Positions 3,825 to 28,367 of a DNA stretch of 64,000 nucleotides are shown here, piece after piece. Position 1 is the stretch's first letter. Every line of letters starts with the position of its first letter. The translations under genes were made by a program, and so were the position numbers. Under the pieces are notes generated by a model. It was not told the origin of the DNA. It was given only the letters and a program-made list of their open reading frames with translations, and ran no database searches. Source of the DNA: an uncultured virus (IMG/VR IMGVR_UViG_3300010158_000057) (lineage: Duplodnaviria > Heunggongvirae > Uroviricota > Caudoviricetes); IMG/VR virus record IMGVR_UViG_3300010158_000057; one strand, given 5' to 3'.

Positions 3825-6800
3825 TTAAGCGGTTTGTCTTCCTATTGCTCCTTCAGTGCTTTTCATCAAATTTTTGTTCACGCCAGCTATTGAGTTGTTT
3901 ATATTATCATTGCTAATAGCTACCGACGTATCAATACTTCTTTTTACAATATCATTAACTCGTTCTGGTAGCATATCTGTGATAATATGACCGCTATGTG
4001 TTAGTACGATCTCGTCTGGGAACTTGGTCTCGGATATTGCCTTAGAAGTATTGGCTAGTTTTTGTGCGCTTTCTGTCATGGTGGATCCTACACTATTTAG
4101 CTTTGATGTTACGTCCGTTAATGCGTTGCCTATGGCTTTTGAAATCTCCTGTGCCTGACCAATAAACTCATCAACCCAAGCTGGTTTAGCCATAACCATA
4201 TTTTGGCCAACACTATTATTTAATACACCGCTACTGTTAGATATCTGGCTCATAGCCCCAATAGGATTCTCATTACCGCGAGACAGGTAGTGAGGCTGCA
4301 CAAAGCCACCATTAGCCAAGTAATTAACAATCCCACCCGCAGAATATGCTCCTCCATTAATAGCATTCAGAACTGGCATGAACTTCTGAGCAGAGTTGCG
4401 ATTGACCACAAATTCTCCGGGTGTTAACATGGCCGGAACAGTATCAGTACCAGAAGCTTGGGCATCAATTAATGCTCCATTATTAGCATATACTATACCT
4501 CCAGAAGCATAGTGATTACTGCTATTTTGCAGAGCCTGATTATTGCTGTAAACTAATCCTCCTGTAGCAAGATTTTTTGGTTCTCTCCAACTACTACCAT
4601 CTACACCGATATTACTACCATTATTAGCCGCTACATCATATTCTCTTTCTAAGCTATCTAAAAATGTGCGTGATTCGCCATAGTCACTTGAGGAGTATTT
4701 GCTTTGATTTGCTCTAAAGGAATTCTTAAATTCTTGAAATTGCCCACTGACATTTTGATAGGTGTCATAATCTACATCTTCGCCACCCCCACTATTTACC
4801 ATATCTTCAAAAGCTTTTTGTATAGCGCTTCTGTTTCGAGCATATTCAGAATCTGTTAGAGCCATTGTCCATTGGATCTCTCCGGTCCCTGGGTTGAGCA
4901 CAGTGTCGTTGGTCCTTGGTGACTGTCCCATCTCTGAGACTCTATCATTTTTCTCTTTCTTTTCTCTTCTTGCTTTTTGTTCTTGTGTTTCTCCTGCTGG
5001 GGGTTTATCTGGTGTTGTTTTTGATCTTCTCCAATCTGGTTTTTTATCACCTCCAACATTTCCTCCATTCTTAGCTGCTATAATAAATTCTTGTTCTAGG
5101 CTATCTAAGAAAGATCTAGATTCTCCATAATTAGAACTATCAACAACATGAACATTCTCTTTCAATAAATCTTTTAAATCTTTGAATTCGGATAATCCTG
5201 TTTGATAAATACTATGATCGACAACTGGTCTATCTCCGGTATCTTCTGCATCCTTTCTAATTTTTACCATTTTCTTAAATAGATCTTGGATATTTCCTGT
5301 GTGCTGACTATATTTTTGTCTTCCTAGCTCCAATGGCCACCTGATACTTCCTGTGTCAGTATCTATTGAGACAGGCATATTTGTATCTGTGGTGATTCTT
5401 GGAAGAGCAAACGTTTGGGCCATTCTGTTATTTTTTTCTACTCTCTGTGCATTTGCTTGCTCTCTACGATTAAAAGGATTTGCTAGTGGAGCATTAGGAT
5501 CTGGTACCTGAGCAGGATCTGGGGCGGCCTGTGCGGGATCTGCTGGTTTTTCTTTTGGTTTTCTCCAATCTGGTTTCTTTTTTCCTCCTAGATCCCAAGT
5601 GCCACTCTTTATCATCATGTCATATTCTCTTTGCAAACTATCTAAGAACGTTCTAGATCTACCATAATCTCCAGCGTCATATTCTCCTACTCTGGATTTT
5701 AATCTGCTCTTAAATTCATTAAAGGCTTGAATAGAATCATCATACCCAACATGGCGAGTCATTGCTTTTTCTATAGCAGTTCTATCGCTGGAGAAGACAC
5801 CGTCCCTAAGAACTACAGGCCAATTAATTTTAGCTGTTCGCTCGAACTGTTTGGAACCATCCTTCTTTTCTGTCCAATCTAGTTTAATGTCTTTTTCATC
5901 TAGTCTGGGAGCCATTCCAGATGCTGCTATTCTATTATTTTTTTCTGCTAGTTCTTGTGCTGCTTTTTCTCTGGGATCTTGAGAGAGTGGTGCTGGAGCG
6001 CCAGCTGGAGCACCGGCTGGAGCGCCAGCTGGAGCACCGGCCGGAGCACCAGCGACTGGTATCGGGTTTTTCTTTTTTCTCCAGTCTCTTTGATCTCCTG
6101 TTGGTCCATCGCCTGCAGCTATTCTGTATTCTCTTTCTAGGCTTTGTAAGTAAGATACAGACTTTCCATAATTCCCTGCATCTTTCCCTCGATATTTATC
6201 AACATTTTCTTTTAACTGATATCGTAATTCTTTAAAGTCAGTTAGGGTATTATTATAGTCTTCATAAGAGTCTGTTGTTCCACTCTCTGCTAGTCTCTTA
6301 AATGATTTTTGTAGACTATCTCTAAGGATAGTATAAGGACGATCTCTGAGGACCACAGGCCATCTAATCTCTCCAGTGTCTGGATCAAGATTTGCACTAT
6401 TGATACGAGATGGTGTTCCTATGTCGTTAACTCTATTGACTCTTTGTTGTCTTGTTAATGGTACAGGTATTGCTTGTTTGCCAGCTGGGGTTGCTCCTGA
6501 AGGGGCTCTTCCTCCTCCAACCAAATATACCACACCTCCTTTATTCATAGTATCGGGTGAAGAAACATCAGCTCCACTATTAATAGCTTTCAATAGTGGT
6601 AGGTGTTGAGCAGTCGATCTGGCATTAATTACAAATTCACCAGGGGTAAGCATGGCTGGTACAGTATCTGTTCCCTTGGGTTGGAAATTAATATACTTTC
6701 CAGTAGAAGCATAGATTAATCCTCCGTTATAGTGACCAGCGGCTTTATGTTCGTCACCATGAGTATCTCCATGTTCGGCACCATGTCCACCACCATGTTC

Positions 6801-9800
6801 GGCACCATGTCCACCACCATGTTCGGCACCATGTGCCTCACCATGTTCATCACCATGATCATGGTCATGCTTGTGTGGCACAAGATAGTGGTGCATCTGT
6901 TTTTCCATAAAACTTATTAAGCCTTCTTCTTTCCACTTTTCTCCTATTGTGTGAATAGCTCTTGCCAGGGTCATACGAAGACTACCTAATTCAGACGTTT
7001 TTTTAACTACAGCATCCTTCAGATACTCTTGTCTTACTAATCCTAAAGTCTGACCGGGTAAGTTGGGTAATTCAAAATTACTAACAGAAGCGCCAGCAGA
7101 TCGAGGAGAACTGATTCCTGCCTGAGTAAGTATTTCTTGAAAACTAGTTTCTGCAGATCTGGCCGCTTCTTCCGGCGGTAATATTCCTTTTAGTTTAATT
7201 TTTTCCTCTAGAGCCTCTCTTATCTTCGTCAAAGCTTCTGACCATTGAGTATTAGGTTTATTAGATAATGCATTATCTAATTGAGAAGAGAATCCACTTA
7301 TTGGGCTATTATTTATTGCTTCTTTTAAGCTAGCATAAAGCTCGGGCTTGGATGTCAATGCTTCTTGTAAAAACTTTGCACTATTATCGTCGAATACCGA
7401 TAAAGGAGCCTTAGAAAAGACCATACCAAAATCATCTAACATTTTTTGAGCTGTTACGGATTGAAAAGTTTGCTGTCCATTTTCAAATATCTCCACTTTT
7501 CCTCTATTATCAACATACTTTTTAATTGCGGTTTTTAGATTCTCTTTAAAAAGGGCAAGTTGCTCTGGTATGCTGCTTCCCCCCGAAGTAACTGGGCGAT
7601 ATCTTGTTGTTCCCTTGGCTCCCGGCACCAGAGGACTTTCCAAAGCCAAAGATCCATTTGTCGTTGGTGGTGCTATCTTTTCAGAACGAACAACAGCTGC
7701 ATAAGGTCCTTCTTTGGTAGATGCTTCATAGGCTTTTTTCCCTAATTGTTTTGTCATATTTTCTTGTACAGCGTGCATATCTACACTATGCGTCAAGTGA
7801 TGCTCTGCGCCAGCCATACCTCTTTTGGCCATAAATTGACCAACACCTCTATGTACCAATCTTTCTATAGGTTCCGCATATAATGTTCCACCAAGCAATT
7901 CACCACCAAAACCGACCCATCTTCCAGCTTCATAGTTTTCTGGATGTTTCTTTATTTTTTCTTTTATAGACTCCATCATATCTTCGGGCAATATCGCAGA
8001 TATTCCTTGTGCAATGGCCCAATTAAGTCCTTCTCCTGCCAATGTTCCACCCAATCCACCAACAGCAGCAGTACCAAAACCTATAGGGGTGGGGCCGCCT
8101 CCTAAAACAAAGCCTAGTCCAGCCCCAGCTACTCCTAAAACTCCAGGTAAAATTTTAGTCATCAATCCAATAGCGCCAACTAGAGCTTCATCTCTATTCT
8201 CTGGAATACCTAAATAGTCTACCCACTTTCTGCCTTCAGTGTAAGTCCAGTCTCTTGACTGTTGTGGTAAAATTCTAGCAGTATACCAATCATCAATATC
8301 TGCTTCTGTAGAAGCTGCTTCTTTATAAATATTAGAATATGTGGGCGCGGTTGATTGGAGAGCATCAGCCCTATATTTAAAGAATGACTCAGCATCATTT
8401 CTTTCAGCTTTACCCCTAGTATTAAAGTCTATTGGATTAATATCAGATAATAATAAGGTTTTTATTTCAGTATCTAGATGTTCTATCTGTTTTTCGCTAT
8501 TTTTAGAACCTATTCCAAGCATGTTATAGTGTAGATCCATCCCCCTAACATTTCCTGCCTCATAATTTCTTAGTTTTCCAGTATTGGCTTCTTCTACAAC
8601 CCTAACATAATCTTCGTGTTTTTTCTTTTCTGCTTTTTTCTGTTTAACCATCGATAATTGTTTAGCTGCTGCTATAACATAATCCAAAAATTCTGTATAA
8701 GTACCACTCTCTCTGCTAAAATACGAGCTAGCCACATAATTAAGATCTGAATCAACAAGTGTTGATAATTTTTCTGTAATATTTGTTCCTGGTGCATTAT
8801 TTAAAATATCTTCCCACTTTTTGTGCCTTGGATATCCAAGCTCTCTAACATACTGCCCAGCATTAGGGTATTTCTTTCTTTCACTAAGACTAAAAACAAA
8901 GCTGTTGGAGCCCTGGGGATTAAAAAGAGAAGTGCTTCCAACTTCTCTAGCCTCTTTTTGTGTTCGTCTATATTCTCGATTTTTGAGGACACCACTATAG
9001 TCTACTATTTTAGATTTGGGTGCCTCACCACCTCCAAAATACTTTGAAATATTATTCAATGTAGCTTCTTCTAAATGTCCGGACTGTTCTAATTCATCAA
9101 TAGCTTGAAGGATTGGCTTATTAGGACCAAATTTTATACCACCTTCGGGATTTTTTGATCCTGTGGATCTATAAATAGTACTATTCCCACTATTCATTGC
9201 CTGTAGTAATGGTAAATTATTTTGTGTTGCTTGGCTATTTACTACAAATTCTCCGGGACTTAGCATAGCAGGAATAGTGTCTGTACCCTTGGGAGAAAAT
9301 AATGCTCCCATACTAGCATAAACAACTCCACCAATAGCTTTGTGTTTCGCAGCAATAAGACTCGTTTGTGGCTCAACCTCTAGAGGAGGTAATGATTCTG
9401 GTTTAATATTATCAGATAAACTAGATCCTAGTTCTTCTATGGCTCTGCCCACCAAAGACTGATATTTATCTAATTTCTCTTTGACAATTGGACTATCTGG
9501 TCCAAGTCTAAAAAAGGTTGTATTTTCATCATTAGTTTTTTGTGTTGCAAGCTCCTTTAATCCAGATCTTTGAGCATATAGTGTTTGTTCTTTTTCTGCA
9601 ATAGCATCGCGTATTGGTTTTTCTTCAACCTGCATTTGTCCTTTCTCTTCTAGCTGTCTAAGAGAAGAAATTTGAGCAGTGAGGGTGGCTATGGATCTGA
9701 CCAGACTTGATTCTTGAGCATCTAAACCAAAATTAAAGCTGTCTGGATTTTTTGATTGTTTTGTGACAGTACCGTCTGATCCAGTCACATACTCTTGTGT

Positions 9801-18800: not shown

Positions 18801-21800
18801 TGGTACCTTGTCGGATACCGAGCCTCCGGCAGCATATCCCGCCATAGATGCTAGTTTATCTGGACCAATAGAGTTTACGCTACTCTTTCTTATAACGAAA
18901 TCTCCAACATTAAGCATAGCTGGTACAGTATCACCATTTCCAACACCAGGAACCATTCCTCCAGCAGCAAATTTGGGTAGCGTATCCATAAAATCTGGTT
19001 TTAATCCAGCATTTTCAAAAACTTTTGATAAAATTTCAGCAGCCTGTTTATTTCCTTCTGATGCTGCACCTAATAAAACCGGAACAGTTTCATTTGCTCC
19101 TAATTGTTTTTGATTGTCTATTAATAAAGAAAGGAGATGATCGCTCGATATCGTCTTATCTCCTTTGAACCTTTTTGCTTTAGTTACAGCTGATCTGGCT
19201 GAGTCTCCCAGATCCGTACCATAAGGACTATTACTAGACGAGTCTGGAAATAGTTGCTTAAACTGATAATTCCCTTTTTCTGTGAATTTTTTATTTGTTG
19301 GATCTTTATACCATCTCTCAATATTATCCTTTTCAGAGCCTACTGATGATATTAGTTTATCCATAATTTTTGGATGATTGTCATATAAAAATCCTTGAAT
19401 ATCATGGAATGTTTCGTGAGCTAGTACTCCTTTGTGCTTGGCTCCTCTTAAAGATATCTCGTCTTCATTGCCTATAAATGCAAGATTTTGGGAAATGAAT
19501 TTATCTAAACCTTCTGCCTCTATTGGGGGAAGCTCTGATCTTCTTTTGTTTAATAAATGTCTTAATGATTTATAGTCTAATCCACCAGAGTAATAAGCCT
19601 TACCCGAGTCATAAGATGCCAAACCCAATTTTTGAAAAAGAGTTTTCTGGACAGGGGGTGTGATATGGATACTTTTTCCTTCTCCCGACGGCATTTTCAA
19701 CATACCATCTTCGGTAAGCATCTCGGGAGGTAGTATGCTACTCAAAACTTGTCTGTATTGTTCGAGGTGCTTGTTTACTTTTCCTCCGGTAGCCATAGTG
19801 ATACTAATTTTACCGTATTCTTTTTCTTTTTGGGGAGTTTCAGCAAGTCCACCATCAGCAAATGCTTGAGCAAGAATACCTTTATTTCCATTCTCTTTAT
19901 AGTATCTTGTAAATTCTTTTTTAGCATCAGAAATGGCATTAGAGTCTAGTGTTCTCTTAACTTCTGTTGGCCAATCAGAACCTATTCCAGGAAAATATTG
20001 AGCAGCAGGGCCTAGGCCGTTCTCGTAATCTACTGCTCCATTCTGGATCAATCCTCCAGTAGCTCCCATCACAGTCATAACAGATTGTGTGATTGCCCCT
20101 TCTATATTGGGAAATCCACTAGCGGATTTTTCTTCTTGGGTCAAATCCTTTAGTTCTGTATAGTGAAATGCTTTTTTCCCAGCTTTTCTGGTTTCGGTAA
20201 CATTTTGTAAATTATCGTCAATTAGGGCTTCTAGTTGTTTAACGTCTTGAGCTTTAGCTTTTGCTATAGTAGTATTATTAATACGTTTAGTTGTTTCATC
20301 AGCTATATCTAATTTGCTTTCTCCTATTGGCTTGGATACTCCAGTAATATCAGATACTTGGAATGGTAGTTCCAGTCTTTGTAAAGTTTCAGCTAGTATT
20401 CCAGCTGTTTCTTGTGGTCTTGCAGTTAAAATTCTAGATTTTTTAAGGAAAGAAGGATCTTGAGCTATTAATTTTTTGAGTTTTTTGCCTAATTGAGTTA
20501 GTTCTGCATTTTTCATAGATTCTCTAACGGCTTCAAAATCACTATATTTTGGAATGTCTGGATTGCCATTAGCATCTACAATATCAGCGCCAGTAACTAA
20601 AGTTTCATCAAAATCAAAAGCATATTTTTCACTAGAGCCGAAAATTTTTGTGTCTTGAATATCAGAACCAAATTGATTAACTACTCCCTCAACTCCACGT
20701 CTCATATTCTTTACTGCTGTATCATATTCAGAAGATAATCCAGCAATAAACAATGTAACATTTTTATCGCCAAGTTTCATCGGTCCCTGGATTTCTTTTT
20801 TATCTGTTGGCTGTAATCCTACTATTCCTAATTTAGTAGACTTATTAACATCTCTAATTGTTAATTTTGTTTGTTCTGTAGTATCATCTTTTAGCTCTTG
20901 AGCTAAGTAATTTTTAGCTGCGGTATAGTTTGCTGTTTTTTCTGGAGTCATTGATGAGGCAAACGATTTTCTCCATACGGCATTAACATTATCTATGCTA
21001 ATGGGTTTGCCAGCAAACATACCCAAAGATGGATCTGTAGGAAAATTTTTTCCAGAATATAATTGGGCTATGGTTTTTGCAGGGACATCGGTTGTTACAC
21101 TATCTGGGAGTCCAAACTCTTTTAGCCATTCTGGCTTATCTTTCATAGAATCATATATTGACTGAAGTAATGGACTCAGTGTTCTTCCTCCCTCAGAAAA
21201 TCTTTGAGCTTTACCTCCTAATGAGAGCATTTGGGCCTGAATATTTATTCTGCTTTTTTCATTTAAAATTTCAGATATTCCAGCTTCAAAGTCTGGTTCA
21301 TAAACTGTAAATTCTTCTCCGGTATCTGATTTAGCAGCGAAGGACTTTTGCTCTTTCTTCTTTTTAATTCCTGATAATTTTTCTTTAAGATCTTCTGATA
21401 TATTCCCACTAGCTTTTAAGATTTTAAATTGACTATTGGGTTGTAATACAAATTCTTTTTCTTGGTCATAACCAGCAATTTTATGCTGTTTGATTTTATC
21501 TAATCCTGGTAATCTACGAGATGTTGGAGATGCATCTGTAGGAGATGTTCCTTTGGCTTTCAATATATCTATTCCCAAAGACTTAGACTTACTAGAATCT
21601 ATAGAAAATAATGATCCGGGATCTCCAACGAATCCTTCTGCCATGTTTGGGTTTACAGAAGCAGATAAGAAAGTTGGAAAGTCAACTGTTTTGCCAATCA
21701 TACTCTCAATAGATTTGGAGGTTTGACCAATTAAATCGTCTGGAGAAATATTTGTATCTTTTAGTATTTCATTAAATTGACCTCTTCCCAAACCACTATA

Positions 21801-24800
21801 TAGTTTTTTGGGCAATTTATATTGGCTAGCTGCGCTTAGTCTTCCTACTAAATCTTCAGTATCGTAAGCTTCATTTCTGTCTGTGAAAATAAAGTCATTA
21901 TTAACCATAGCTCTTGTGAGTGGTCCAGAACCAGCCTGATAATAGGTAACAGCATCTAATAATTCTTGAGAATTATATCCTCCTGTTGGTTTTAGAGCAG
22001 ATTTAGCCGAACGGGGGCCTGTGATAAACTGAGACATCGCATTATATCGTTCCAACATTTCTTTAGCATCAACAACTTCTTTTTCATTTTCTTTAGCATA
22101 AGTTGGGACATACGAGCCTGTTTCGTCAGAAAATACCATCGCAGACTGTAAAAATTTAAGATCTTCTTTGAGGGTGGATTTCTTTTGAGACTGCATTCGT
22201 TGTACCCAACCACCATCCAAAAATCTTTGAACTGCACCGAAAGACATCGTACGCATAGGAGCGGAAACATCATCCAATGTTGTGCTCAAATCCAAACCAT
22301 ATTTTTCTGGTTGTTTGACAGCTAGTGCGGCTAATAGTTTGTGTGGTTCAAATGATGCTGATGATTTGATATTATCTCTTTTTTCTCTTAACTCCTTGAG
22401 GGCCTCAACTTTTGCAGCATATTCTGGATCGGTTTCTGCTTTTTTATTATCTATTCTGGAAATACCTACAGTTTTAATTTGTTGTTCTATATCAGCTAAT
22501 TTAACGCCTTGTGTTTGTTTGACTTCTTCTATGATTGAAGGAAGTATTTTACTTCTGTTCTGAATTCTCCCTATATTTCTCGAAATTAGATCATAAACTC
22601 CAGGACTCAATACCTTTTGTAATTCTCCAAGATTGCCTTCTTTTATAAGGTCACGAACCATCGTTCCACTAATACCACCAGTTCTCTCTATATTCTTAAC
22701 TTTATATCCAGCTGTTTTATATTTTTCTGTTTCTTTTGGATCTTTATCAGCCACAAATGTTGTGCTACCTTTAGCTGGTACTAATACTTTGCGGCGTTCT
22801 CCTGGTTCAGAGAGGTCGAAAGCTTGAGGAACTTCAAAGTCTCTTGGTTTTGGAAGCACAGTGGCTCCACGAGCACCAGCACCAGCTTTTGCCAATAAAA
22901 CTCTAGTATCTTGATCAAATATTGCTGTTCTATAGGATTGCTCTTTTCCAGGGACTATTCCTTCGTTGGATCCAACCATATAAATGAAATCTTCTGGGGG
23001 TATGCCCATTGCGGCTGCCGCATCCAGAATACTTTCATGACCAGCGGTCATTGGAGAATAACCTCCCCATGTAAATCCTATTTTCTTTTTAACCACATCA
23101 ACCAGTTCATCTCCCTGTTTTCTGCGTAATCTGCCACTCTCAGAGCGACCTAAAACAGTAGATCTATTACCAAGTCTGTCTGATAATAAAGCTTCACTGA
23201 CAGCGGTATCTGTTGCAACATTGGTTGTGGATCCAGGTTTACGATTTTCTAAACCTATACCACTAATGTCTCTTCCAACTCTACGAGATCTAACTCCTTC
23301 TCTTTCCTCTTTAGTAGTAGAGCTTAAAGTATATGTTCTGTCTGTCTCTCCAAAAACGTTATCTAATTTATCTTTTGAAACACTACTACTTAAAACTAAA
23401 ACCTCAGTAGCTCTTTGAATATCTTCTGGAGATAATATTGGGAATCTTTCAGTTTGTCTTAAAGTTCCACTATCTGTTCCTTGGCCTCTTGCTAGTGTTG
23501 TTTTACCACTACCAGCAACACCATATATTGCTCTTAATTTATCTAGACTACTTTCTTTTCTTGCTTGTATTGCTAGCTGTGTTAAATGATCAGTATACAG
23601 TCTAGGACCGGTCATTCCGGTGGCTTCCATACCCTTCTTGACAACGGCTTCATTATCAGGATTAGCAATAACGTCATAATCAATATATCCAACTTTTCGT
23701 TGAGCTACTCCACCGTCTGCAAATTTTTGTGCTTTCCCTCCACGGCTTAACATTTTTACAGCCCAATCCATATTGAGCGATTCAAGAAGATTTCCACCTT
23801 CTGTACTATTATCGTTAGCCTCTATATTTTTTACTTTAAATTGAGAATTTCTTGGTAGAATATATTCTGATTCAATATCATAATCGTCAGCATAATTTTC
23901 ATCGGCTTTGCCCTTACCGTAAGAATCAGAGATAAGTCTCTGGTCTATTTTTCTTGTTTTTGATTTGTCTCTGTTAATTGTTTCTGTCTTAGCTCTTTCT
24001 GGACTTAATCCTTTGCTTTTTTTGTTTGTTTCTATTGTCATCATGCCTGTTCTTGCAAAGCTTTCTGCTGTGGCTGGCACTTCTGAAGTAGATAAGAAAG
24101 AAGGTATACTGACAGTTTTTCCAACTAGTTTTTTGGTATCTTCTAGTTTATTAATTTTTACGCCAGCTGATTCTATAAATAGTTTTTGCTTACTAGCTCC
24201 TATACCACTATATAATTTTTCTGGTAATGAAAATTGCATAGCAGCATCTAATGATCCAGCAAAATAAGACAATGGCTGATCTACTGCTGGTCCAAGTTTT
24301 TTTCTTTTTGTCTTATTCAAACCTGCTACATCAGCTAATGACTGACTTAAATCTTCTTTTCTACCCAAAGCGGGATTAAGAGCTCCGTCTAAGCCTATTG
24401 CCTGATATGCTCTAATAGTATCTAGCATATCACTAACGCTATAGCCTTTATTAGCAGTTAGATTTTCAACATCTCTACCTTCTAAACTTTTAACTTTATC
24501 AATATATTTGACATCATTTTCTAACACGCTCAAAGGAACATCAACGTATTCTCTGTCTGGATTGTATCTAACTATACTTTTTGGTCCAACCTTATCTATA
24601 TTTTCTTGTTTATTACCAGGACCCAAATTTCCCCTATATGCTTCATTTAATGCTTGTTTAACAACACCCCCATAAACTCCTCTTGTTATTTCATATGTTT
24701 TATTTTCTGCAATTAACGATTTAAGATGATCTGAAATGTTAGATGGAGCTTTTGGTAAAGTTATTTCTTTCTCAACTTCTTTTCCCTTTTGTGGTTCTTT

Positions 24801-27407
24801 AGCAGCTAGGAACTTTTGGATCGCGTCTATTCTTTCTTTAACTTCTTTTTTCCCAGCATCTTCCATGAAAGGGGCCGATTTACTGAATGTGCTAATTGGA
24901 ACCTTTCTTTGAAAACCAAATAACTCCAATGTAGAATCAAGTAATCCTAGTTCGTCTTTAAGTTTATTAATGGGTTGCTGCTGCATTCTTTTAACCCAGC
25001 CACCATCTGCAAATTTCTGATAAGCATCAGGATGATCAAATAAATACTCATAAAATTTATGTTTAGATTCTGCTGCACGATAATAATCAATATTTCCTAC
25101 TTGAATATCATCTATTTTATCTTTTCTTGCTTCTGTAAATTGAGATAGTAATTTTTGTTCTGATGATTTGATCTTATATCTAAATAATTTACTAATTAAA
25201 GTCTCTGGTTCTTCTTCAACAGATCTAAATTTAACTTCTGCGGGGGCTTTGCCTCTTTTTCTTCTAACATCAATAGGGAAATTGCCTCCTGCAACAGATT
25301 CTAACTGATCGTCTGAATGAGCTACAATATAGTCTTCAAAAGCTGATCCCCACCTCTTTTCTGCGCTTTTCCATAGGCTTGCTTGTGGATTCCATTTTCT
25401 TTTATTAGAACCCTTACCAAAATAAACATCTAGATAATTTTGTTTATTTTCTTGGGTTAGTTCTAAATCTCTATATGAGCTTTTTCCTCCAGCAGACTCA
25501 TTAGCAATAGCTTCAGATCTACTAATAATTTCTTTAAAATCTTTTGGCCCAAGATTTGGTTCTATTTTATTAATTTTACCAGTAACTTTATCATCTAGTT
25601 CTATGTCTTTTTTCTTTTTAGCAAATTCAAAAATAGTCTCGGGACCACCTGCTTTTGCCAACTGCTCCACTGTAAAGGTTTCTATTTTCCCACCACTACC
25701 ATATTTATTCATGCTATGTAATTTATTAACGCCCATAGCTTTTACGGCTGCTTTACGAACAACAAACTCTCCGGGAGTAAGCATTGCCGGAACACTATCA
25801 CTATCTCCTACTCCAGGAACCAAACCTCCGGTAGCAAATCCTTTCTTTGAAGAATCTTTACCTCCACCAGATAGTCCTTCATATAATCCTCCGGCAAATC
25901 GGGATATTGCTTTGGCTCCTTGTACAGCAGCAATGGCAGTAAACATTGGTAGCAAGCCTTTAGCAGCCCCGACAACCTTGATTAAGGCGCTTGTTAGCTG
26001 CAAAGCTCCAGTAACCATTGTTTGAAAAGTATTAGACGATCCTATATCTCTGAATAGTGCTAAAAATTCTTCTCTTGTTTTGGCAATTTGATTAGCTAAT
26101 GATAGTTGTGCTTTGGCAGCATCTGTGGCTAGCGAGCCTTGTCCCTGTTGAGCAACCGACAATGCTTGTTGTGCAGTAGAGAATTCTTGGATCAAAGGGA
26201 TAACTTTGCCAATCTGTCGGAAACCACCAAGTTCTTCAATGATTTTGGAAAATTTAACATCTCTAGGGTCTAATCTTGATAGTCCTTGAGAAAGTAATTC
26301 TACCGATTTATAAGCTCCAACAAATTTACCGTCAAGATTTTGTAGATTAACTCCATATTCCTTAAGAGCATCAATAGTACTTTCTCTTTGAATTCTAGTA
26401 AATATTGTTCTTAAACCTGTTGCAATAGTTTCTGCGCTTTCACGAGTTGTGGCTCGTACGCTAGTAAATACTGCAATAAATTCATTTAGAGCGTCTGTTC
26501 CTTCACTAACTCCTTTGCTTGCTGTAGCAAACACACCACCGGTTCTTTGAATGGCAGTAATAATGTCGCTGGCTTCTACAGCAAACTTAGCAGCTACTGA
26601 GTTGACCGCGCCGAGTGCTTTTTCCAGGTCGCTAGCACTAATATCAAACTGTCTCATCAAAGCAATAGATCCTTCGACCGTTTCATTCATGCTATCAAAA
26701 GATGGAGCTAGCGAACTTAATGCTAATGCTTTAAGGGCTTTTTCTGTATCTCTAGCACTCAAGCCTGCCTGTGCTAATGTAGAAGCAATATCCACCAACT
26801 CTGCTGATGATGTTCCAAGACCAGCAGATAAACTAGTAATTACTCTGCCCAAAGATTTTAATCCTTCAGCACTTTCTCCAGTAACTTGCTGTAGTTTAAC
26901 AAACTCTTTATCAAAAGAGATAAATTCTGATGTTCCTTTACCAACAGCACTAACTAGTCCATAAATAACACTTGTAACACTGCTAAATGCAGCAAATCTT
27001 CTTACCGCCAAACCAGCTTGCTTGCCGAACTCTTGCATACTAGAAGAAGATTCTTGTATTGCTTGAGATGTCGCTGCTTGAGTACTAGATAGATTTTTAG
27101 CAGCTTGGTTGGCTTGGTTTAATTGATTACTATATTGACTAACAGAATTACCCTGGCTCATGGCTGAAGTAAATTTGGATACGGCCGTTGCTGCCGCTGT
27201 TGCTGATACTTGGGTGTCTTTAAATGTTTGATTAAGAGATTTTAAAGAGGCATCCAACTGTGATACATTCTTGGCCGCATTAGGATCAAGAGTAAACTTA
27301 ACTGTAGTATTGATATTCCCAAGTTGATTTTTAATACTGGATACTATTGATCCAATATTAGATGGTCCCTTGAGATTTAGTTGTGCTGTTAAATTAAATG
27401 CTGCCAT
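3825..27407 (-). CDS. Giant tail tape measure protein with multiple embedded enzyme-like domains (polyvalent/polyprotein-like)
   Basis: Uninterrupted 7,860-aa ORF directly after the tail tube and chaperone genes. N-terminus has typical TMP core motifs (TLAQAG, VAAKFAVEASDI, TTRESAETIATGLRTIFTRI, GGFRQIGKVIPLI). Confidence 0.92.
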   Translation of the reverse strand: MAAFNLTAQLNLKGPSNIGSIVSSIKNQLGNINTTVKFTLDPNAAKNVSQLDASLKSLNQTFKDTQVSATAAATAVSKFTSAMSQGNSVSQYSNQLNQANQAAKNLSSTQAATSQAIQESSSSMQEFGKQAGLAVRRFAAFSSVTSVIYGLVSAVGKGTSEFISFDKEFVKLQQVTGESAEGLKSLGRVITSLSAGLGTSSAELVDIASTLAQAGLSARDTEKALKALALSSLAPSFDSMNETVEGSIALMRQFDISASDLEKALGAVNSVAAKFAVEASDIITAIQRTGGVFATASKGVSEGTDALNEFIAVFTSVRATTRESAETIATGLRTIFTRIQRESTIDALKEYGVNLQNLDGKFVGAYKSVELLSQGLSRLDPRDVKFSKIIEELGGFRQIGKVIPLIQEFSTAQQALSVAQQGQGSLATDAAKAQLSLANQIAKTREEFLALFRDIGSSNTFQTMVTGALQLTSALIKVVGAAKGLLPMFTAIAAVQGAKAISRFAGGLYEGLSGGGKDSSKKGFATGGLVPGVGDSDSVPAMLTPGEFVVRKAAVKAMGVNKLHSMNKYGSGGKIETFTVEQLAKAGGPETIFEFAKKKKDIELDDKVTGKINKIEPNLGPKDFKEIISRSEAIANESAGGKSSYRDLELTQENKQNYLDVYFGKGSNKRKWNPQASLWKSAEKRWGSAFEDYIVAHSDDQLESVAGGNFPIDVRRKRGKAPAEVKFRSVEEEPETLISKLFRYKIKSSEQKLLSQFTEARKDKIDDIQVGNIDYYRAAESKHKFYEYLFDHPDAYQKFADGGWVKRMQQQPINKLKDELGLLDSTLELFGFQRKVPISTFSKSAPFMEDAGKKEVKERIDAIQKFLAAKEPQKGKEVEKEITLPKAPSNISDHLKSLIAENKTYEITRGVYGGVVKQALNEAYRGNLGPGNKQENIDKVGPKSIVRYNPDREYVDVPLSVLENDVKYIDKVKSLEGRDVENLTANKGYSVSDMLDTIRAYQAIGLDGALNPALGRKEDLSQSLADVAGLNKTKRKKLGPAVDQPLSYFAGSLDAAMQFSLPEKLYSGIGASKQKLFIESAGVKINKLEDTKKLVGKTVSIPSFLSTSEVPATAESFARTGMMTIETNKKSKGLSPERAKTETINRDKSKTRKIDQRLISDSYGKGKADENYADDYDIESEYILPRNSQFKVKNIEANDNSTEGGNLLESLNMDWAVKMLSRGGKAQKFADGGVAQRKVGYIDYDVIANPDNEAVVKKGMEATGMTGPRLYTDHLTQLAIQARKESSLDKLRAIYGVAGSGKTTLARGQGTDSGTLRQTERFPILSPEDIQRATEVLVLSSSVSKDKLDNVFGETDRTYTLSSTTKEEREGVRSRRVGRDISGIGLENRKPGSTTNVATDTAVSEALLSDRLGNRSTVLGRSESGRLRRKQGDELVDVVKKKIGFTWGGYSPMTAGHESILDAAAAMGIPPEDFIYMVGSNEGIVPGKEQSYRTAIFDQDTRVLLAKAGAGARGATVLPKPRDFEVPQAFDLSEPGERRKVLVPAKGSTTFVADKDPKETEKYKTAGYKVKNIERTGGISGTMVRDLIKEGNLGELQKVLSPGVYDLISRNIGRIQNRSKILPSIIEEVKQTQGVKLADIEQQIKTVGISRIDNKKAETDPEYAAKVEALKELREKRDNIKSSASFEPHKLLAALAVKQPEKYGLDLSTTLDDVSAPMRTMSFGAVQRFLDGGWVQRMQSQKKSTLKEDLKFLQSAMVFSDETGSYVPTYAKENEKEVVDAKEMLERYNAMSQFITGPRSAKSALKPTGGYNSQELLDAVTYYQAGSGPLTRAMVNNDFIFTDRNEAYDTEDLVGRLSAASQYKLPKKLYSGLGRGQFNEILKDTNISPDDLIGQTSKSIESMIGKTVDFPTFLSASVNPNMAEGFVGDPGSLFSIDSSKSKSLGIDILKAKGTSPTDASPTSRRLPGLDKIKQHKIAGYDQEKEFVLQPNSQFKILKASGNISEDLKEKLSGIKKKKEQKSFAAKSDTGEEFTVYEPDFEAGISEILNEKSRINIQAQMLSLGGKAQRFSEGGRTLSPLLQSIYDSMKDKPEWLKEFGLPDSVTTDVPAKTIAQLYSGKNFPTDPSLGMFAGKPISIDNVNAVWRKSFASSMTPEKTANYTAAKNYLAQELKDDTTEQTKLTIRDVNKSTKLGIVGLQPTDKKEIQGPMKLGDKNVTLFIAGLSSEYDTAVKNMRRGVEGVVNQFGSDIQDTKIFGSSEKYAFDFDETLVTGADIVDANGNPDIPKYSDFEAVRESMKNAELTQLGKKLKKLIAQDPSFLKKSRILTARPQETAGILAETLQRLELPFQVSDITGVSKPIGESKLDIADETTKRINNTTIAKAKAQDVKQLEALIDDNLQNVTETRKAGKKAFHYTELKDLTQEEKSASGFPNIEGAITQSVMTVMGATGGLIQNGAVDYENGLGPAAQYFPGIGSDWPTEVKRTLDSNAISDAKKEFTRYYKENGNKGILAQAFADGGLAETPQKEKEYGKISITMATGGKVNKHLEQYRQVLSSILPPEMLTEDGMLKMPSGEGKSIHITPPVQKTLFQKLGLASYDSGKAYYSGGLDYKSLRHLLNKRRSELPPIEAEGLDKFISQNLAFIGNEDEISLRGAKHKGVLAHETFHDIQGFLYDNHPKIMDKLISSVGSEKDNIERWYKDPTNKKFTEKGNYQFKQLFPDSSSNSPYGTDLGDSARSAVTKAKRFKGDKTISSDHLLSLLIDNQKQLGANETVPVLLGAASEGNKQAAEILSKVFENAGLKPDFMDTLPKFAAGGMVPGVGNGDTVPAMLNVGDFVIRKSSVNSIGPDKLASMAGYAAGGSVSDKVPALLTPGEFVFSKTAAQKIGYPKLHSMNKVGKFASGGAVGLRVGYADGGAIQDLGKFLSVVSSMLNSIPTRAMSIRPNTIDSSTTKINDSSTIDALSLLGKALENVGVKTSETAALVKRGGDISYKATIDAMEADLERAKIAGLSSKQIIALEDVIKLTREKSTQAVANKQFLEKSFSNSDTGKKLGSGAAQQAILTKASELEPKIRENTEYSNRLSLMGSGLSSQQIAATAKSMTDTPESREKIKSKSIIAATEEVTGVDRKEFTKQHLEASDIQQYIAQSMLDRKTLTQMDRQVLADKMDELQRTKAFKQASFEEQKKMLDQIRAQAKQETSQRREVLDPIAKEKGLPGLKEGSIPQSLSGIFSSKAGLAGLGLLATAPGLIEAFGPSAKTSSSASFMGGLRGAGETASAGLTLAGQLPGAAGPILAATAIATLASAAIKARNAFIEFEKNLANRQLEVSLSNLQQLFAELAKDTKDIRIQNQISSEIQKGAGNVSRLEQIDSSFPKAFFANGLDALFASRDSRDKGTANGTQASSDRSKILEKFGTAAYYRSTGFGQANFGLNAIGADARADKNRKMYLEMMAPEEAQERAKRSSALSESSQAFILNKAKSGKTATEISKEPDYEVLARNIALANNAVQEQILAIERSNLVNKEAAKTSIIRQYAEEQLIKITRQAQQERAMELSERAGRQFSMSFDRMFANMNQSIMSTNNSLDIFSDRLDSSINAFGGQASIGKTNLDTINTLKTPNISSSASFASAASTGSSLFGTENKLVESILVLGRDLESSLMSTINKTIQTNPRASDTKISSDIENSINNLLGKSNLPPDLTAQLSKSIGIGITEIRRKEGEGTKDRKIDFAELLRAIPGLKDTVDALKTTNNSVIASLENYQTVLDKFTQKLEMSSEKLREAAERRFKADDIVIDSSIQLAKTFGSDINPALGNVLRNQRTSRMTGGVTDPNDLLVQINQLQSRSTNQRDNLNELKNRSIGQPGAINAIIDNEKALSRTNYQLNQTYTALKNLADSGDAASNALSAIQAAQQKQAGKVSLIEKLVGSAPDELDTFNRALVRLQRTAGGERLYQTADQRKEILSVLNDITPLMGSNQEAHNFKANTLENLLQTSGIGLNPQFQSIINSIRNPEADPAVKQATEEYKNAVQVQSEANRAIAELNTNISTKLVEDMSKALKDSITNTRVKFDEGQIKDIVAGIRSATTVVAPGAPVARASGGIIYSAAGSYVDFQPQGTDTVPAMLTPGEFVMSKPAVDRIGSGTLSRMNKGYSNGGQVSYYADGGYVSSLLQNKYVDRSTGEPLIRKTGTFSIDNGTQNYPNLSEEFTTGSLNTFKNLQILPSFGAGTASGQIDSSGKKNETHTIGYSDQPNLGYGVPPSATYLAWFFSQKEEKNRGAYKYTEPAGAGTPSIVPLGVFLSPGTTTKSILDEKPLIFDGPELEAKKKFEQYIEKLTEVNRLLPTKIEQKNDAYDISVGAANFNIPSPDSINNAIKEFPSVSTTGKPGEFSIKGMSKPVSGYVGLYSDRSSGLPTVDGLLGNLGAGHSEENLPDIVLQRLGKDIMGISPQTRGTSNTNGFTGAGKKSEYDYSVTPPKIVDYGLSKSFMDGWISGLGKKPQTIKLPGSDMSSLVSLRQKITGEKYINDLKNKKLTAKEAEYEAVIAKKLKRISDKTESSVDINNDYFDLKKLGSDSDSVNVFSISTGEWPPYVKMLQQSINNSKNKETLEKLSYYGKDPTKLPFDVWPEGDFTKLQQFGWMDSGLEFDKATAAQVTRKVEDRAKQANPDIIENSITGKIKLNDPQLELPYRLNYSQNNKPTWWDTKTNSKSGKPIVDGFDSLYLLNAGGETAGAKGSTDNILQLLNTGDKRLFATSNGLEKYIPDQLSEQINNDPKLLAYLKSAMANGYDSKETQTLERSNLDGLFKLKLNKNLLGLLTKADAPGGFGDQFKETGDIFSGDIQFFLRDYIVETAKKLSSDKKATQLTDSKKKFGNSRDTSKLVGFDEGQEFAGASLALVLGAEELFGSGGEFELPGILPQNWFKPMLPTQFNSIYDMPQGLIREGMGRLGSWLSDASGRVEKYITPEMAQRDPRQYDKIIRAQTYMRGALSAFSSFEKEATGEVKRFFDPDLFKGPPTPNGNPAAIKQAIDMFQSLETNNKSSSFSINDKSAGSNPYFAAMDKAALTPDKRNRVSEDLKGSKIDKSSNNKDTIDLQEFNPLDLDNASYRNIFTYALNPYNQYTNRDIRAKFFDEFITRIPTATRSNGAPLFSVTEGARYGGALKSLKSWFGGKGNDDAMIPVKANKDWEGIDYLYDQTANKTVSFGDRLTSLDNSLAPNFYDANKYAFDFVGGTGMFGELPDLSNYEKRKVEYKNQGGLIYASQGQLINFEPKGTDTIPAMLSPGEFVVNSGATARNLPLLNSINKNKGGKIGYYKDGGVVDNESLSLLMTQMKITEKLSSSQKSISDSSSSDLASPLLRISNDNEIISIGILQSILKTLEDIKDSTLTCCTGKDIGKPLDIATTLPSQVRPVAPLDIKPPVTAEEGITEGFSPPIPPIPLPDLPIPNKPDFEPIPFPEVEPIVPEMPTMPEMPLPDVREPISTPEDIRPKTMPQMPVMPQPEVVLPKKPAYTEPFPVENFSPSLLPGFPKNPTAPTYENGPTGIDSPFFDPNSLPDRKKPLTISKVAKEADITRQEAITGREKTDLDTSKSEDIIKESEARRAYNRETQTAQSARAGNVLSSGISRANGAITAIKGAQEIKEAGTSYDAFRGGLSVVDGIGDLAGASAPPLAAAGDAAGLTRNSLDFYNNPETRLQSGLGIANDATSLTLRAAQTTSLMAPAGSLASQIAAPLGAVGGVAELGRGAVAGAYDTSNEAKLRTAVENIIIGAATGDATTGGSSLAGAANAFGANIQQGGMVDTQLAAGESSLRLAGIGATLGTFVAPGPGTAIGGAGGAVVGAGAELYKSGSAYARESAQAQQLQVRTDQMVKSSKTQEYVTGSDGTVTKQSKNPDSFNFGLDAQESSLVRSIATLTAQISSLRQLEEKGQMQVEEKPIRDAIAEKEQTLYAQRSGLKELATQKTNDENTTFFRLGPDSPIVKEKLDKYQSLVGRAIEELGSSLSDNIKPESLPPLEVEPQTSLIAAKHKAIGGVVYASMGALFSPKGTDTIPAMLSPGEFVVNSQATQNNLPLLQAMNSGNSTIYRSTGSKNPEGGIKFGPNKPILQAIDELEQSGHLEEATLNNISKYFGGGEAPKSKIVDYSGVLKNREYRRTQKEAREVGSTSLFNPQGSNSFVFSLSERKKYPNAGQYVRELGYPRHKKWEDILNNAPGTNITEKLSTLVDSDLNYVASSYFSRESGTYTEFLDYVIAAAKQLSMVKQKKAEKKKHEDYVRVVEEANTGKLRNYEAGNVRGMDLHYNMLGIGSKNSEKQIEHLDTEIKTLLLSDINPIDFNTRGKAERNDAESFFKYRADALQSTAPTYSNIYKEAASTEADIDDWYTARILPQQSRDWTYTEGRKWVDYLGIPENRDEALVGAIGLMTKILPGVLGVAGAGLGFVLGGGPTPIGFGTAAVGGLGGTLAGEGLNWAIAQGISAILPEDMMESIKEKIKKHPENYEAGRWVGFGGELLGGTLYAEPIERLVHRGVGQFMAKRGMAGAEHHLTHSVDMHAVQENMTKQLGKKAYEASTKEGPYAAVVRSEKIAPPTTNGSLALESPLVPGAKGTTRYRPVTSGGSSIPEQLALFKENLKTAIKKYVDNRGKVEIFENGQQTFQSVTAQKMLDDFGMVFSKAPLSVFDDNSAKFLQEALTSKPELYASLKEAINNSPISGFSSQLDNALSNKPNTQWSEALTKIREALEEKIKLKGILPPEEAARSAETSFQEILTQAGISSPRSAGASVSNFELPNLPGQTLGLVRQEYLKDAVVKKTSELGSLRMTLARAIHTIGEKWKEEGLISFMEKQMHHYLVPHKHDHDHGDEHGEAHGAEHGGGHGAEHGGGHGAEHGDTHGDEHKAAGHYNGGLIYASTGKYINFQPKGTDTVPAMLTPGEFVINARSTAQHLPLLKAINSGADVSSPDTMNKGGVVYLVGGGRAPSGATPAGKQAIPVPLTRQQRVNRVNDIGTPSRINSANLDPDTGEIRWPVVLRDRPYTILRDSLQKSFKRLAESGTTDSYEDYNNTLTDFKELRYQLKENVDKYRGKDAGNYGKSVSYLQSLEREYRIAAGDGPTGDQRDWRKKKNPIPVAGAPAGAPAGAPAGAPAGAPAPLSQDPREKAAQELAEKNNRIAASGMAPRLDEKDIKLDWTEKKDGSKQFERTAKINWPVVLRDGVFSSDRTAIEKAMTRHVGYDDSIQAFNEFKSRLKSRVGEYDAGDYGRSRTFLDSLQREYDMMIKSGTWDLGGKKKPDWRKPKEKPADPAQAAPDPAQVPDPNAPLANPFNRREQANAQRVEKNNRMAQTFALPRITTDTNMPVSIDTDTGSIRWPLELGRQKYSQHTGNIQDLFKKMVKIRKDAEDTGDRPVVDHSIYQTGLSEFKDLKDLLKENVHVVDSSNYGESRSFLDSLEQEFIIAAKNGGNVGGDKKPDWRRSKTTPDKPPAGETQEQKARREKKEKNDRVSEMGQSPRTNDTVLNPGTGEIQWTMALTDSEYARNRSAIQKAFEDMVNSGGGEDVDYDTYQNVSGQFQEFKNSFRANQSKYSSSDYGESRTFLDSLEREYDVAANNGSNIGVDGSSWREPKNLATGGLVYSNNQALQNSSNHYASGGIVYANNGALIDAQASGTDTVPAMLTPGEFVVNRNSAQKFMPVLNAINGGAYSAGGIVNYLANGGFVQPHYLSRGNENPIGAMSQISNSSGVLNNSVGQNMVMAKPAWVDEFIGQAQEISKAIGNALTDVTSKLNSVGSTMTESAQKLANTSKAISETKFPDEIVLTHSGHIITDMLPERVNDIVKRSIDTSVAISNDNINNSIAGVNKNLMKSTEGAIGRQTA
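4575..6460 (-). repeat. Four tandem ~130-aa domains near the TMP C-terminus
   Basis: Each has approximately R...TGxIxWP..L...YGxSRxFLDSLE(R/Q)EY...DWR. Copies at about 6063-6460, 5545-5943, 5010-5435 and 4575-4952. An (APAG)n linker lies at about 5992-6055. Confidence 0.9.
6730..6895 (-). repeat. His/Gly-rich tract within the TMP
   Basis: HHYLVPHKHDHDHGDEHGEAHGAEHGGGHGAEHGGGHGAEHGDTHGDEH, with a 24-bp direct repeat at DNA level. Confidence 0.9.
18972..19781 (-). other. TMP domain: HExxH zincin-like metallopeptidase
   Basis: VLAHETFHDIQ at about 19404-19418, with a downstream NE (GANETV) as a possible third ligand. Confidence 0.6.
19865..20120 (-). other. TMP domain: second PD-(D/E)xK-like segment (degenerate)
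   Basis: NIEGAITQ...AVDY...PTEVKRT parallels the first copy (GSAFE...PIDV...AEVKFR). Confidence 0.4.
20150..20640 (-). other. TMP domain: HAD-superfamily phosphatase
   Basis: Motif I YAFDFDETL (about 20601-20615), motif II ILTAR, motif IV LIDDNLQN. Confidence 0.75.
21230..22208 (-). other. TMP domain: ADP-ribosyltransferase-fold module 2 (VIP2/C3/Alt-like)
   Basis: YYQAGS...KLYSGLG...GKTVDFPTFLSAS...AEGF...QEKEFVLQPNSQFKI. Confidence 0.75.
22540..23090 (-). other. TMP domain: HIGH-class (cytidylyltransferase/NMNAT-like) nucleotidyltransferase
   Basis: IGFTWGGYSPMTAGHE ((T/H)xGH motif) and C-terminal RTGGISGTMVR (ISxT.xR motif). Confidence 0.75.
23130..23700 (-). other. TMP domain: P-loop (nucleotide/polynucleotide kinase-like) domain
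   Basis: Walker A RAIYGVAGSGKTTLAR at about 23496-23522, plus an Arg-rich lid-like segment (REGVRSRR). Confidence 0.65.
23760..24998 (-). other. TMP domain: ADP-ribosyltransferase-fold module 1 (VIP2/C3/Alt-like)
   Basis: IRAYQ...LNPAL...KLYSGIG...GKTVSIPSFLSTS...AESFA...IESEYILPRNSQFKV. Confidence 0.8.
25015..25690 (-). other. TMP domain: PD-(D/E)xK (restriction-endonuclease fold)-like nuclease
   Basis: WGSAFEDYI...FPIDV...AEVKFR gives the E...D...ExK catalytic pattern. Confidence 0.55.
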
Positions 27408-27424
27408 TTATTTTGTCCCTATAG

Positions 27425-27491: not shown

Positions 27492-28367
27492 TTACGCTGC
27501 GGGTGGTGTGACACTATCTGTTGTTGTAGGTGGAGCATCGCTGGACACAACAGTGTCAGGCTTAACATCCTCGTCAAGAACGATGGGGTTCCCACTATCA
27601 TCCAGGAATGGTTTCGCTTCAACAACATAGTCTCCTTGTGCGTCTACTTTATTGCCAAACTTGTCAACAAAACTACCCTGATCATCAATATATCGTCCAG
27701 TCTCATCGATTAGTCTTCCTTCACTATCGATTAGTCGTCCTTTCTTATCCACCAATCTTAGTTTGTCGTCAACAAACCTGTACTTTTTCAAAAACTTATT
27801 TTCTGGCAATGTTGACTCATAATCATTATCAAGACCATATAACATATTAGCCAAATTTTGAGCAGCTAATACTGAAATTGATTCTCCTGCACGATTAAGG
27901 TAGTCTTCCATGTTCGAAAAATATGTTTGCTTAGTATCATTATACACCAAACATGCTGATACAAGATAGTTAAACCTAGCATTATCTGCTTGACCTTCAG
28001 CACTATGATTATCCAGAGAAGTTCTAACACTAATAAGATCTCGAATCTCTTCTCGTGTTCGGCGCATCTTAACTGCTAGGTCTTTAGCCTCATTTAAACT
28101 GAAGCCACCCTTTGCTAGTTTCTTTTCTCCGTCTAGGAGTTCTCTTTGAAGTGCCGTGAACTTGGCCTGTTTCTCGTCATTCCATAGTCCTTGGTCCTGT
28201 AGCAGATCGTCTAGCTTCGCCCTAACCACACTCTTCGACTTTACAGCATCGGTAAAGGCTTGATTATATACCTTTTGTCCTTCTCTCTGGTCTGTTAGGG
28301 AGGGGCTACGAACTAAAAATTCCTTCTCAACACCATCTACGGTCGCAGTAAAAGTTTTTGTCTTCAT
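27492..28367 (-). CDS. Putative tail assembly chaperone
   Basis: 291 aa, helical, immediately upstream of the TMP. C-terminal D-x-x-G-R-L-I repeats. Confidence 0.6.
   Translation of the reverse strand: MKTKTFTATVDGVEKEFLVRSPSLTDQREGQKVYNQAFTDAVKSKSVVRAKLDDLLQDQGLWNDEKQAKFTALQRELLDGEKKLAKGGFSLNEAKDLAVKMRRTREEIRDLISVRTSLDNHSAEGQADNARFNYLVSACLVYNDTKQTYFSNMEDYLNRAGESISVLAAQNLANMLYGLDNDYESTLPENKFLKKYRFVDDKLRLVDKKGRLIDSEGRLIDETGRYIDDQGSFVDKFGNKVDAQGDYVVEAKPFLDDSGNPIVLDEDVKPDTVVSSDAPPTTTDSVTPPAA

Follow-up and report, generated by a model that had tools for sequence, protein, structure and literature searches.

In a 64,000-nucleotide (nt) stretch of DNA from an uncultured tailed phage (Caudoviricetes; IMG/VR record IMGVR_UViG_3300010158_000057), hereafter the window, a giant tape measure protein carries a short, repeated glycine-glycine motif, [FYLMKR]-[ASN]-x-GG-x-[VI]. 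We found that this motif marks the boundaries of exchangeable protein cassettes far beyond chance, and that cassettes are gained, lost and reordered at it. A processing site is the best reading of the motif: by analogy with the tails of phages T5 and lambda, we put at roughly 55% the probability that it is a tape-measure maturation site, multiplied along the chain and cut at x|[ASN]xGG.

The motif and its carrier

All of these motifs lie in a single open reading frame (ORF; 3825..27407, minus strand) of 7,860 amino acids (aa), which belongs by sequence to the TP901 family of tape measures, scoring above the curated cut-offs of both PF10145 (82.6 bits, cut-off 33.2) and TIGR01760 (94.8 bits, cut-off 28.8) and also matching phrog_28. 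One public contig is identical to positions 11400-27420, with 0 differences, and may be where the window's DNA comes from.

A first-pass annotation had reported about 25 xxxGG motifs in this ORF; nine of nine of its coordinates match, with the start of both doublets lying one codon earlier, on a Met, and eight of eight further motifs that it named are present. The pattern it proposed, [FYML]xxGG, is real, with 31 occurrences against 9.4 ± 3.1 expected (maximum 18 in 500 shuffles), or against 11.1 (maximum 22) when shuffling is confined to local stretches of 100 aa, and the narrower [FY]xxGG occurs 22 times against 3.6 (maximum 10 in 500 shuffles of the tape measure). Plain GG is barely enriched, with 81 pairs against 57 (maximum 77) in global shuffles, and not clearly so once shuffled locally (65, maximum 87).

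We also scored sites with a position-weight model trained on the doublets of the family, using a site threshold of 9 or more. It keeps 26 sites in the window protein, comprising 22 of the 31 pattern sites and four headed by K or R (RASGG 4094, KNQGG 5248, KNKGG 5300 and KAIGG 6023, numbered by residue), which the proposed pattern misses. Nine pattern sites score below 9, among them FTWGG 1445 (23061-23075), a non-junction motif in the interior of cassette C1. For the family at large, 80 related loci yielded 55 non-redundant proteins including the query, 37 of them with a bounded cargo region; their 688 sites follow [FYLKRM]-[ASN]-x-G-G-x-[VIA], with V or I at +3 in 535. Sites also form doublets with a period of 9 (145 cases at that spacing), in whose two halves GG, the most conserved part of the motif, is kept in 66 of 81 and 78 of 113, the second GG being degenerate (GS, AG, GT or GE) in 35 of 113.

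The motif is nearly confined to the tape measure protein. Six full-length tape measures carry 3.2-3.9 copies per 1,000 aa; the remaining ORFs of one complete relative hold 7 in 55,965 aa and the 36 other window ORFs hold 2 in 11,697 aa, rates near the shuffled one of 0.23 per 1,000 aa. The weight model was trained on the same proteins as this count, and the plain pattern agrees with it: [FY]xxGG occurs 543 times in 200,869 aa of tape measures against 45 times in 137,379 aa of neighbouring ORFs. The enrichment in other virion proteins that the first-pass annotation had proposed to look for is not seen, the motif being absent from the head and other virion proteins in the ORF scan of the window and relative.

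Cassette exchange at the motif

Cutting the related proteins at the motif gave 203 segments, which fall into 26 clusters and 53 singletons and are combined into 47 architectures among 52 proteins, with nine cassette pairs occurring in both orders. We called homology breakpoints from unmasked BLAST with no reference to the motif; 118 of the 203 are no more than 15 aa away from one, against a null mean of 0.143 (maximum 0.241). Some of these breakpoints are steps from conserved to diverged sequence rather than swaps. Other GG pairs, serving as a control, are near 12 of 211 breakpoints. Away from the approximately 55-aa module described below, 89 of 133 breakpoints still fall within 15 aa of motif sites (null 0.08), and therefore the short motif is kept by itself. 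A masked run had placed 103 of 211 breakpoints within 10 aa of a motif; a masking artefact behind this result was considered and rejected, given the unmasked count and the 2 of 205 breakpoints near masked decoy sites.

Close strains show the exchange directly. All three cassette-sized length changes among the joints listed are in frame and end within 6 nt of a motif: in one strain 25014-25700 is replaced by 829 other bases, both ends being within 1 nt of motifs; in another, 549 extra bases stand between FADGG 2516 and MATGG 2538; and in a third, 897 extra bases lie 6 nt from FLDGG 1729. Positions within 10 nt of a motif make up 4.2% of the stretch. The tally holds at least 13 joints, two of unknown kind having been left out; eight of the 13 listed have no end within 10 nt of a motif, and these are same-length, near-same-length or unsized diverged stretches. 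C-terminal halves were seen in five relatives and 150 library proteins; no relative turned up when viral contigs were searched with the central region as query.

The first-pass statement that each enzyme cassette sits between two motifs is true of the six N-terminal cargo cassettes. From the N-terminus, the protein is laid out as follows.

3825..27407, minus strand: tape measure protein, 7,860 aa (PF10145, TIGR01760, phrog_28)
25836..27407, minus strand: N-terminal TP901-type ruler, aa 1-524, predicted first piece (PF10145/TIGR01760)
25689..25838, minus strand: module 1, aa 524-573, with FATGG and YGSGG edges; homologous to lambda gpH 733-782
25014..25688, minus strand: cassette C2, aa 574-798, with a conserved E..D..EVK pattern; replaced whole in a close strain
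24999..25013, minus strand: free-standing FADGG, aa 799-803
23751..24998, minus strand: cassette C4, predicted ADP-ribosyltransferase (ART), aa 804-1219 (PF03496, E 2.7e-6, above cut-off)
23709..23750, minus strand: free-standing doublet LSRGG and FADGG, period 9, aa 1220-1233
22224..23708, minus strand: cassette C1, with P-loop-like and HIGH-type nucleotidyltransferase-like parts, aa 1234-1728 (PF16581, E 1.3e-4, below cut-off)
22209..22223, minus strand: free-standing FLDGG, aa 1729-1733; 897 extra nt beside it in a close strain
21228..22208, minus strand: second C4 cassette, ART-like, aa 1734-2060 (PF03496, E 0.0074, below cut-off); resembles the first ART cassette
21186..21227, minus strand: free-standing doublet LSLGG and FSEGG, aa 2061-2074
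19863..21185, minus strand: cassette C0, HAD-like, aa 2075-2515, with invariant DFDxTL and DD (weak PDB HAD matches, E 0.5-0.9)
19782..19862, minus strand: FADGG 2516, a 17-aa stub of a lost cassette C9, and MATGG 2538; 549 extra nt in a close strain
18972..19781, minus strand: zincin-like cassette, aa 2543-2812, with HETFH at 19404-19418; no Pfam zincin match
18657..18971, minus strand: modules 2 and 3 in tandem, aa 2813-2917 (FAAGG, YAAGG, FASGG, YADGG)
15129..18656, minus strand: conserved central region, aa 2918-4093, motif-free inside by motif scan
14922..15128, minus strand: module 4, aa 4094-4162, headed by RASGG (T5-like R-A-x-GG)
11469..11666, minus strand: module 5, aa 5248-5313
9138..9341, minus strand: module 6, from aa 6023 (KAIGG), end approximate
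6510..6734, minus strand: module 7, aa 6892-6966, motifs scoring below 9
4593..6410, minus strand: repeat of about 105 aa, four copies, no known family (chunked BLAST)
4305..4571, minus strand: LATGG 7613 and module 8, aa 7633-7701
3828..4304, minus strand: C-terminal piece, aa 7702-7860, putative gpHC/pb2C counterpart

In 150 homologues the first motif lies at a median residue of 518, and the last piece after a motif has a median length of 155 aa.

The matches suggest that the cassettes are enzyme-like, with activities that are predicted. The E..D..EVK pattern of C2, which has no family match, suggests a PD-(D/E)xK nuclease, and C1 carries putative P-loop and HIGH motifs. Profile searches of the PDB left C1, C2 and C9 unnamed, C9 being about 180 aa long in two relatives with a faint acetyltransferase match (E 0.046). 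The cassettes of relatives include SNase and ART-PolyVal-like matches; most of 101 cassette representatives had no Pfam match, and Atlas searches with parts of the protein gave no usable match.

Internal repeats were detected by chunked BLAST, a whole-protein self-BLAST being uninformative. The copies of the repeat at 4593-6410 (minus strand) share an invariant W, YG and SL.E, and among 5.8 billion proteins one similar protein was found, together with one weak genome match. A His/Gly/Glu-rich repeat (HGAEHGGG-like) lies directly before module 7, at about 6725-6860 (minus strand).

The module and the tails of T5 and lambda

The module occurs in eight copies in the window protein and is bordered by 18 of the 26 sites; of the remaining eight, seven separate cargo cassettes and YFGGG 6123 follows module 6. 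The first-pass annotation had overlooked this module, which is shared with lambda gpH and has most of the sites at its edges. Family-wide, 469 of the 688 sites border a module and 219 do not. The module has homologues in lambda gpH at 733-782 (E 3.3e-4 in a search of all PDB sequences), bordered there by FATGG and YATGG, in JBD30 gp46 at 1018-1069 and at two places in gp16 of PDB 8ZDO. Pfam has no separate entry for it; the module falls within the TIGR01541 profile (weak match, E 0.016). All 47 module matches in seven complete relatives lie within the single giant frame, and with two module copies as queries we matched 403 GenBank phage records at E 0.01 and 1,289 at E 1, nearly all annotated rows being tape measures. 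At the head of modules of the window's type, the residue before Ala is K or R in 237 of 775 cases and F, Y or L in 416. Two AlphaFold models of the module are weak (mean predicted local distance difference test, pLDDT, 63.9 and 61.3) and have no fold match at E <= 0.001 in the PDB or BFVD. The same module and GG motifs also occur in a virion protein annotated as lysozyme in the baseplate-hub block of the T4-like cyanophage S-SCSM1 (L097:4177-7029).

In T5, the tape measure pb2 is cut after R1127, according to an intact mass of 9702 Da obtained without trypsin (PMC11937500), and for residues 1128-1219, which start with AEGG, we likewise compute 9702 Da. The products are pb2* and pb2C, and separate ejection has been suggested for the freed C-terminal piece (Linares et al., 10.1101/2022.09.20.507954; PMC11937500). 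Bonds standing in the register of R1127 to a GG are few, 5 of 1,218 in pb2 and one in its last 300 aa. We built a profile from the tails of 34 non-T5-like sequences, each headed by F/Y-A-x-GG; its alignment with pb2 starts at A1128 (i-E 0.0023 among 11 sequences; 0 of 3 reversed decoys matched), and R1127|AEGG of T5 corresponds in position to F|ADGG of related tails. The distance from the x|xxGG bond to the stop is 84-93 aa in these tails (77 of 80 measured), against 92 in pb2C.

Lambda gpH sheds about 14 kDa from its glycine-rich module region to give gpH* and gpHC, and both cut site and catalyst have been an open question since 1974 (PMC12617516). A cut at F733|A734 would give 120 residues of about 12.52 kDa (12,669 Da for 733-853 less one Phe).

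Proposed processing

We propose that the site which in ordinary siphophages stands once, near the C-terminus, and splits the ruler from a tail-tip plug (pb2*/pb2C, gpH*/gpHC) would in this phage family have been multiplied, enzyme cassettes having been inserted between ruler and plug, each with its own site. Cleavage would fall between a large and a small residue, [FYLMKR]|[ASN]-x-G-G, while the tail assembles or afterwards, and its products would remain in the particle, be ejected as separate proteins and act in the host early in infection. Delivery into the host is what the known ejection of tape measures would lead one to expect. A cut in this register would leave first residues of the N-degron type at 49 of 688 sites, against 236 of 688 for a cut after GG, a comparison that is partly circular. 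Of the two readings offered by the first-pass annotation, a protease site that frees the cargo is accordingly the better supported by analogy, and a packaging or docking signal is disfavoured. More tentatively, x|[ASN]-x-G-G may be a general maturation site of tape measures across tailed phages, those of lambda and T5 among them, that has been multiplied in these lake phages, making the tail a magazine of pre-cut, exchangeable effectors; this wider version we hold to be possible, with the odds somewhat against it.

Several points weigh against processing at these sites. We infer cleavage in the window protein, and the only mapped cut at a matching motif is that of T5, itself disputed: an older MALDI (matrix-assisted laser desorption/ionization) study placed it after V1148, and R1127 is also a trypsin site (PMC11937520). 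The tape measures of T5 and lambda are, moreover, the only ones known to be cut in particles (PMC12617516). Homology of the T5 core after the motif to the window module could not be demonstrated (hhalign probability 0.2-2.0; 1.7-2.0 in local mode, with E 0.024-0.03), and the T5 link therefore rests on a five-residue motif and its position. The 80 tails were found with seeds containing ADGG, by which the FADGG head is partly built in. For lambda, the predicted fragment of 12.5 kDa is smaller than the quoted 14 kDa or so, and gpHC has been taken to start at about residue 690 (PMC12617516), for which we compute 16.4 kDa. The authors of the JBD30 study take the module as a structural hook and guess that a cut falls after it (PMC11445458). 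Lastly, there are candidate proteases, none of them tied to the motif.

Protease candidates

The protease that would act on these sites may be one of the family's free-standing S8, trypsin-like, papain-like or ClpP-like proteins; it could also come from the host, or the tail could have such an activity of its own. Our search covered the genomes of relatives and the 36 window ORFs; in one complete relative, G004, 116 of 203 ORFs were scanned, likely spurious ORFs and a glycosyltransferase block being among those left out. G004 encodes S8, trypsin-like and ClpP-like proteins, and S8, trypsin-like and papain-like ORFs recur in all five further genomes. The papain-like ORF, whose PDB matches are weak (E 0.5), is conserved in six of six complete genomes, the G004 gene being 78-91% identical in the five others. 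In G004 the trypsin-like and S8 genes are adjacent (L084:726-2407), with the ClpP-like gene at 11723-12391 and the papain-like gene at 17148-18068. In the window, a gene of the virion block (33386-34402, minus strand) has a proprotein convertase P-domain match (PF01483, E 1.4e-5), and a separate S8 subtilase is conserved in relatives.

Two candidates of the first-pass annotation gained no support. HExxH is absent from three of six full-length proteins, from 29 of 42 cargo regions that keep the motif and from 101 of 150 homologues (present in 49), and because it is so often missing where motifs are kept, the embedded zincin is improbable as the enzyme that cuts these sites in general. The prohead protease, which we presume to be encoded at 45959..47569 from gene position and sequence motifs, is implicated by nothing, since the motif is absent from the head and other virion proteins.

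Genomic setting

Upstream of the tape measure gene lies a structural block with portal, terminase-like and cement matches; tube and chaperone candidates near the gene had no convincing family match. The nearest gene is:

27492..28367, minus strand: 291-aa gene directly upstream of the tape measure, putative tail assembly chaperone (from its position)

This 291-aa protein, too, has no convincing family match. An ORF at 3-965 (minus strand), incomplete at the window edge, ends in long Gly-Ser and poly-Gly runs, and the packaging genes are flanked by a GDP-mannose dehydratase (Pfam; 53179-54249, minus strand) and by what we take by eye to be a GlmS-like gene (61140-62951, plus strand). At L083:18399-19397, L084:4465-5384 and L086:397-2442, G004 also encodes a volactin (PF25216, E 4e-60), a RecA into which a LAGLIDADG domain has been inserted and two proteins with SET domains.

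Other explanations

The strongest alternative is that the motif is a structural or assembly joint that mostly stays uncut, either a flexible turn or a binding site for the chaperone or tube wall, so that linked domains would be threaded through the lumen and refold after ejection. The many sites that border the conserved module (469 of 688) speak for it, as do the period-9 doublets, which resemble a repeated structural unit, the tolerance of the second GG for GS, AG, GT and GE, and the prediction that residues 1022-1066 of JBD30 gp46 form a hook of two helices and a hairpin (PMC11445458). The putative chaperone upstream carries LAKGG, and an LAKGG-type site is found in 54 of 54 relatives; this protein is conserved throughout, however, with 90 of 291 columns at 0.95 or more among 55 proteins, and its LAKGG-type motif is therefore unexceptional. 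Against such a joint, a third of sites lack the module and yet retain the motif where cassettes are swapped, the T5 cut coincides exactly with a matching motif, and the AlphaFold module models show two confident helices but a pLDDT of only about 45-58 over the motifs. On balance we consider such a joint unlikely, though less so than any of the readings that follow.

We find it improbable that the motif is a recombination joint only, through which cassettes are exchanged by short DNA likeness with no function in the protein. The ends of the cassette-sized changes in close strains, all within 6 nt of motifs, would fit such a role, and 86 of 166 FAxGG sites share just four DNA spellings, with a bias in the Ala codon (GCT 0.70 against 0.49). 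Yet the Gly third positions vary as elsewhere (entropy 1.60 and 1.45 against 1.66), with 43 spellings in all, and selection therefore acts at the protein level; the same protein motif is also found in single-copy tails that lack cassettes (lambda, T5 and hundreds of phages). The joint may aid recombination as a side effect.

To a similar degree we doubt that an adenain-, Ulp- or JAB-like protease cuts after the GG, the adenovirus and African swine fever virus (ASFV) analogy drawn by the first-pass annotation. The conservation of GG within the motif, the papain-like ORF and the lambda mass would allow it, as a cut after G737 would give 12.2 kDa, no worse a fit than 12.5 kDa. The T5 cut, however, precedes the GG, and favours cleavage two residues before GG over adenovirus-like cutting after it; the +3 residue is strongly conserved, the second GG of doublets is often degenerate, none of five complete relatives has a Prok-JAB match above cut-off, and no C5, C48 or C39 family member was found among the ORFs scanned. 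Least probable by our estimate is a sorting or docking signal that directs the pieces or the chain to the head or tail tip, the cuts being made elsewhere or by the embedded zincin. A chain of 7,860 residues that includes folded domains would be hard to fit in a tail lumen, and zincins of polyvalent proteins have been proposed to autoproteolyse before packaging (PMC5512222), but the motif is absent from other virion proteins and HExxH from many of these tape measures.

Comparison with known systems

If maturation sites are what the motif marks, lambda gpHC would have A734 as its first residue and a mass of about 12.52 kDa, and Y778|A779 might be cut as well. The module profile matches 32,226 protein clusters at E <= 0.001, and therefore the rule could be wide. 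Were the internal sites cut, such tails would bring into the cell sets of enzymes directed against the host or its defences, and the motif would let uncatalogued effector domains be delimited by sequence alone. Our literature search, which left subscription journals largely uncovered, did not find the motif described as a tape-measure signal.

Adenain, ASFV pS273R and the Ulp/JAB enzymes cut after GG and share with the present system a small GG motif between precursor domains; they differ in that the T5 register is unlike cutting after GG and that no such protease was found in the ORFs scanned. Effectors of contractile injection systems such as Sle1 and Tme also combine a tape-measure-like coiled coil with variable domains in the tube lumen, but they belong to bacterial nanomachines and have no repeated junction, and 'cleav' occurs 0 times in the main text of their description (PMC13277306). 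Enzyme motifs in tape measures and tape measure processing have long been known (PMC1796659), and PMC12724387 has nothing further on cleavage.

The cargo is closest to polyvalent proteins (Iyer et al. 2017, PMC5512222; 2022, PMC9503650), large virion proteins in which ART, zincin and other domains are shuffled and which are held to be injected early; the window protein likewise joins many shuffled effector-like domains, including ART and zincin-like ones, in one chain. Polyvalent proteins have been described as packaged in the head, with autoproteolysis by the zincin proposed, whereas in the window the domains are carried by a tape measure and the motif at their junctions is constant, and the word 'tape' has 0 occurrences in the main text of either paper. 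The junction itself is closest to T5 pb2, whose R|A-E-G-G cut falls at the short motif also found at the head of modules in the window protein (RASGG 4094), with one site in T5 against about 26 in the window protein; in the T5 papers we found no description of it as a conserved signal. Lambda gpH has one module copy (733-782) in the region that is cut and no cargo enzymes, against eight modules and eight further sites here. By these analogies, the system would work like the maturation of T5 and lambda tape measures, multiplied and with polyvalent-type cargo.

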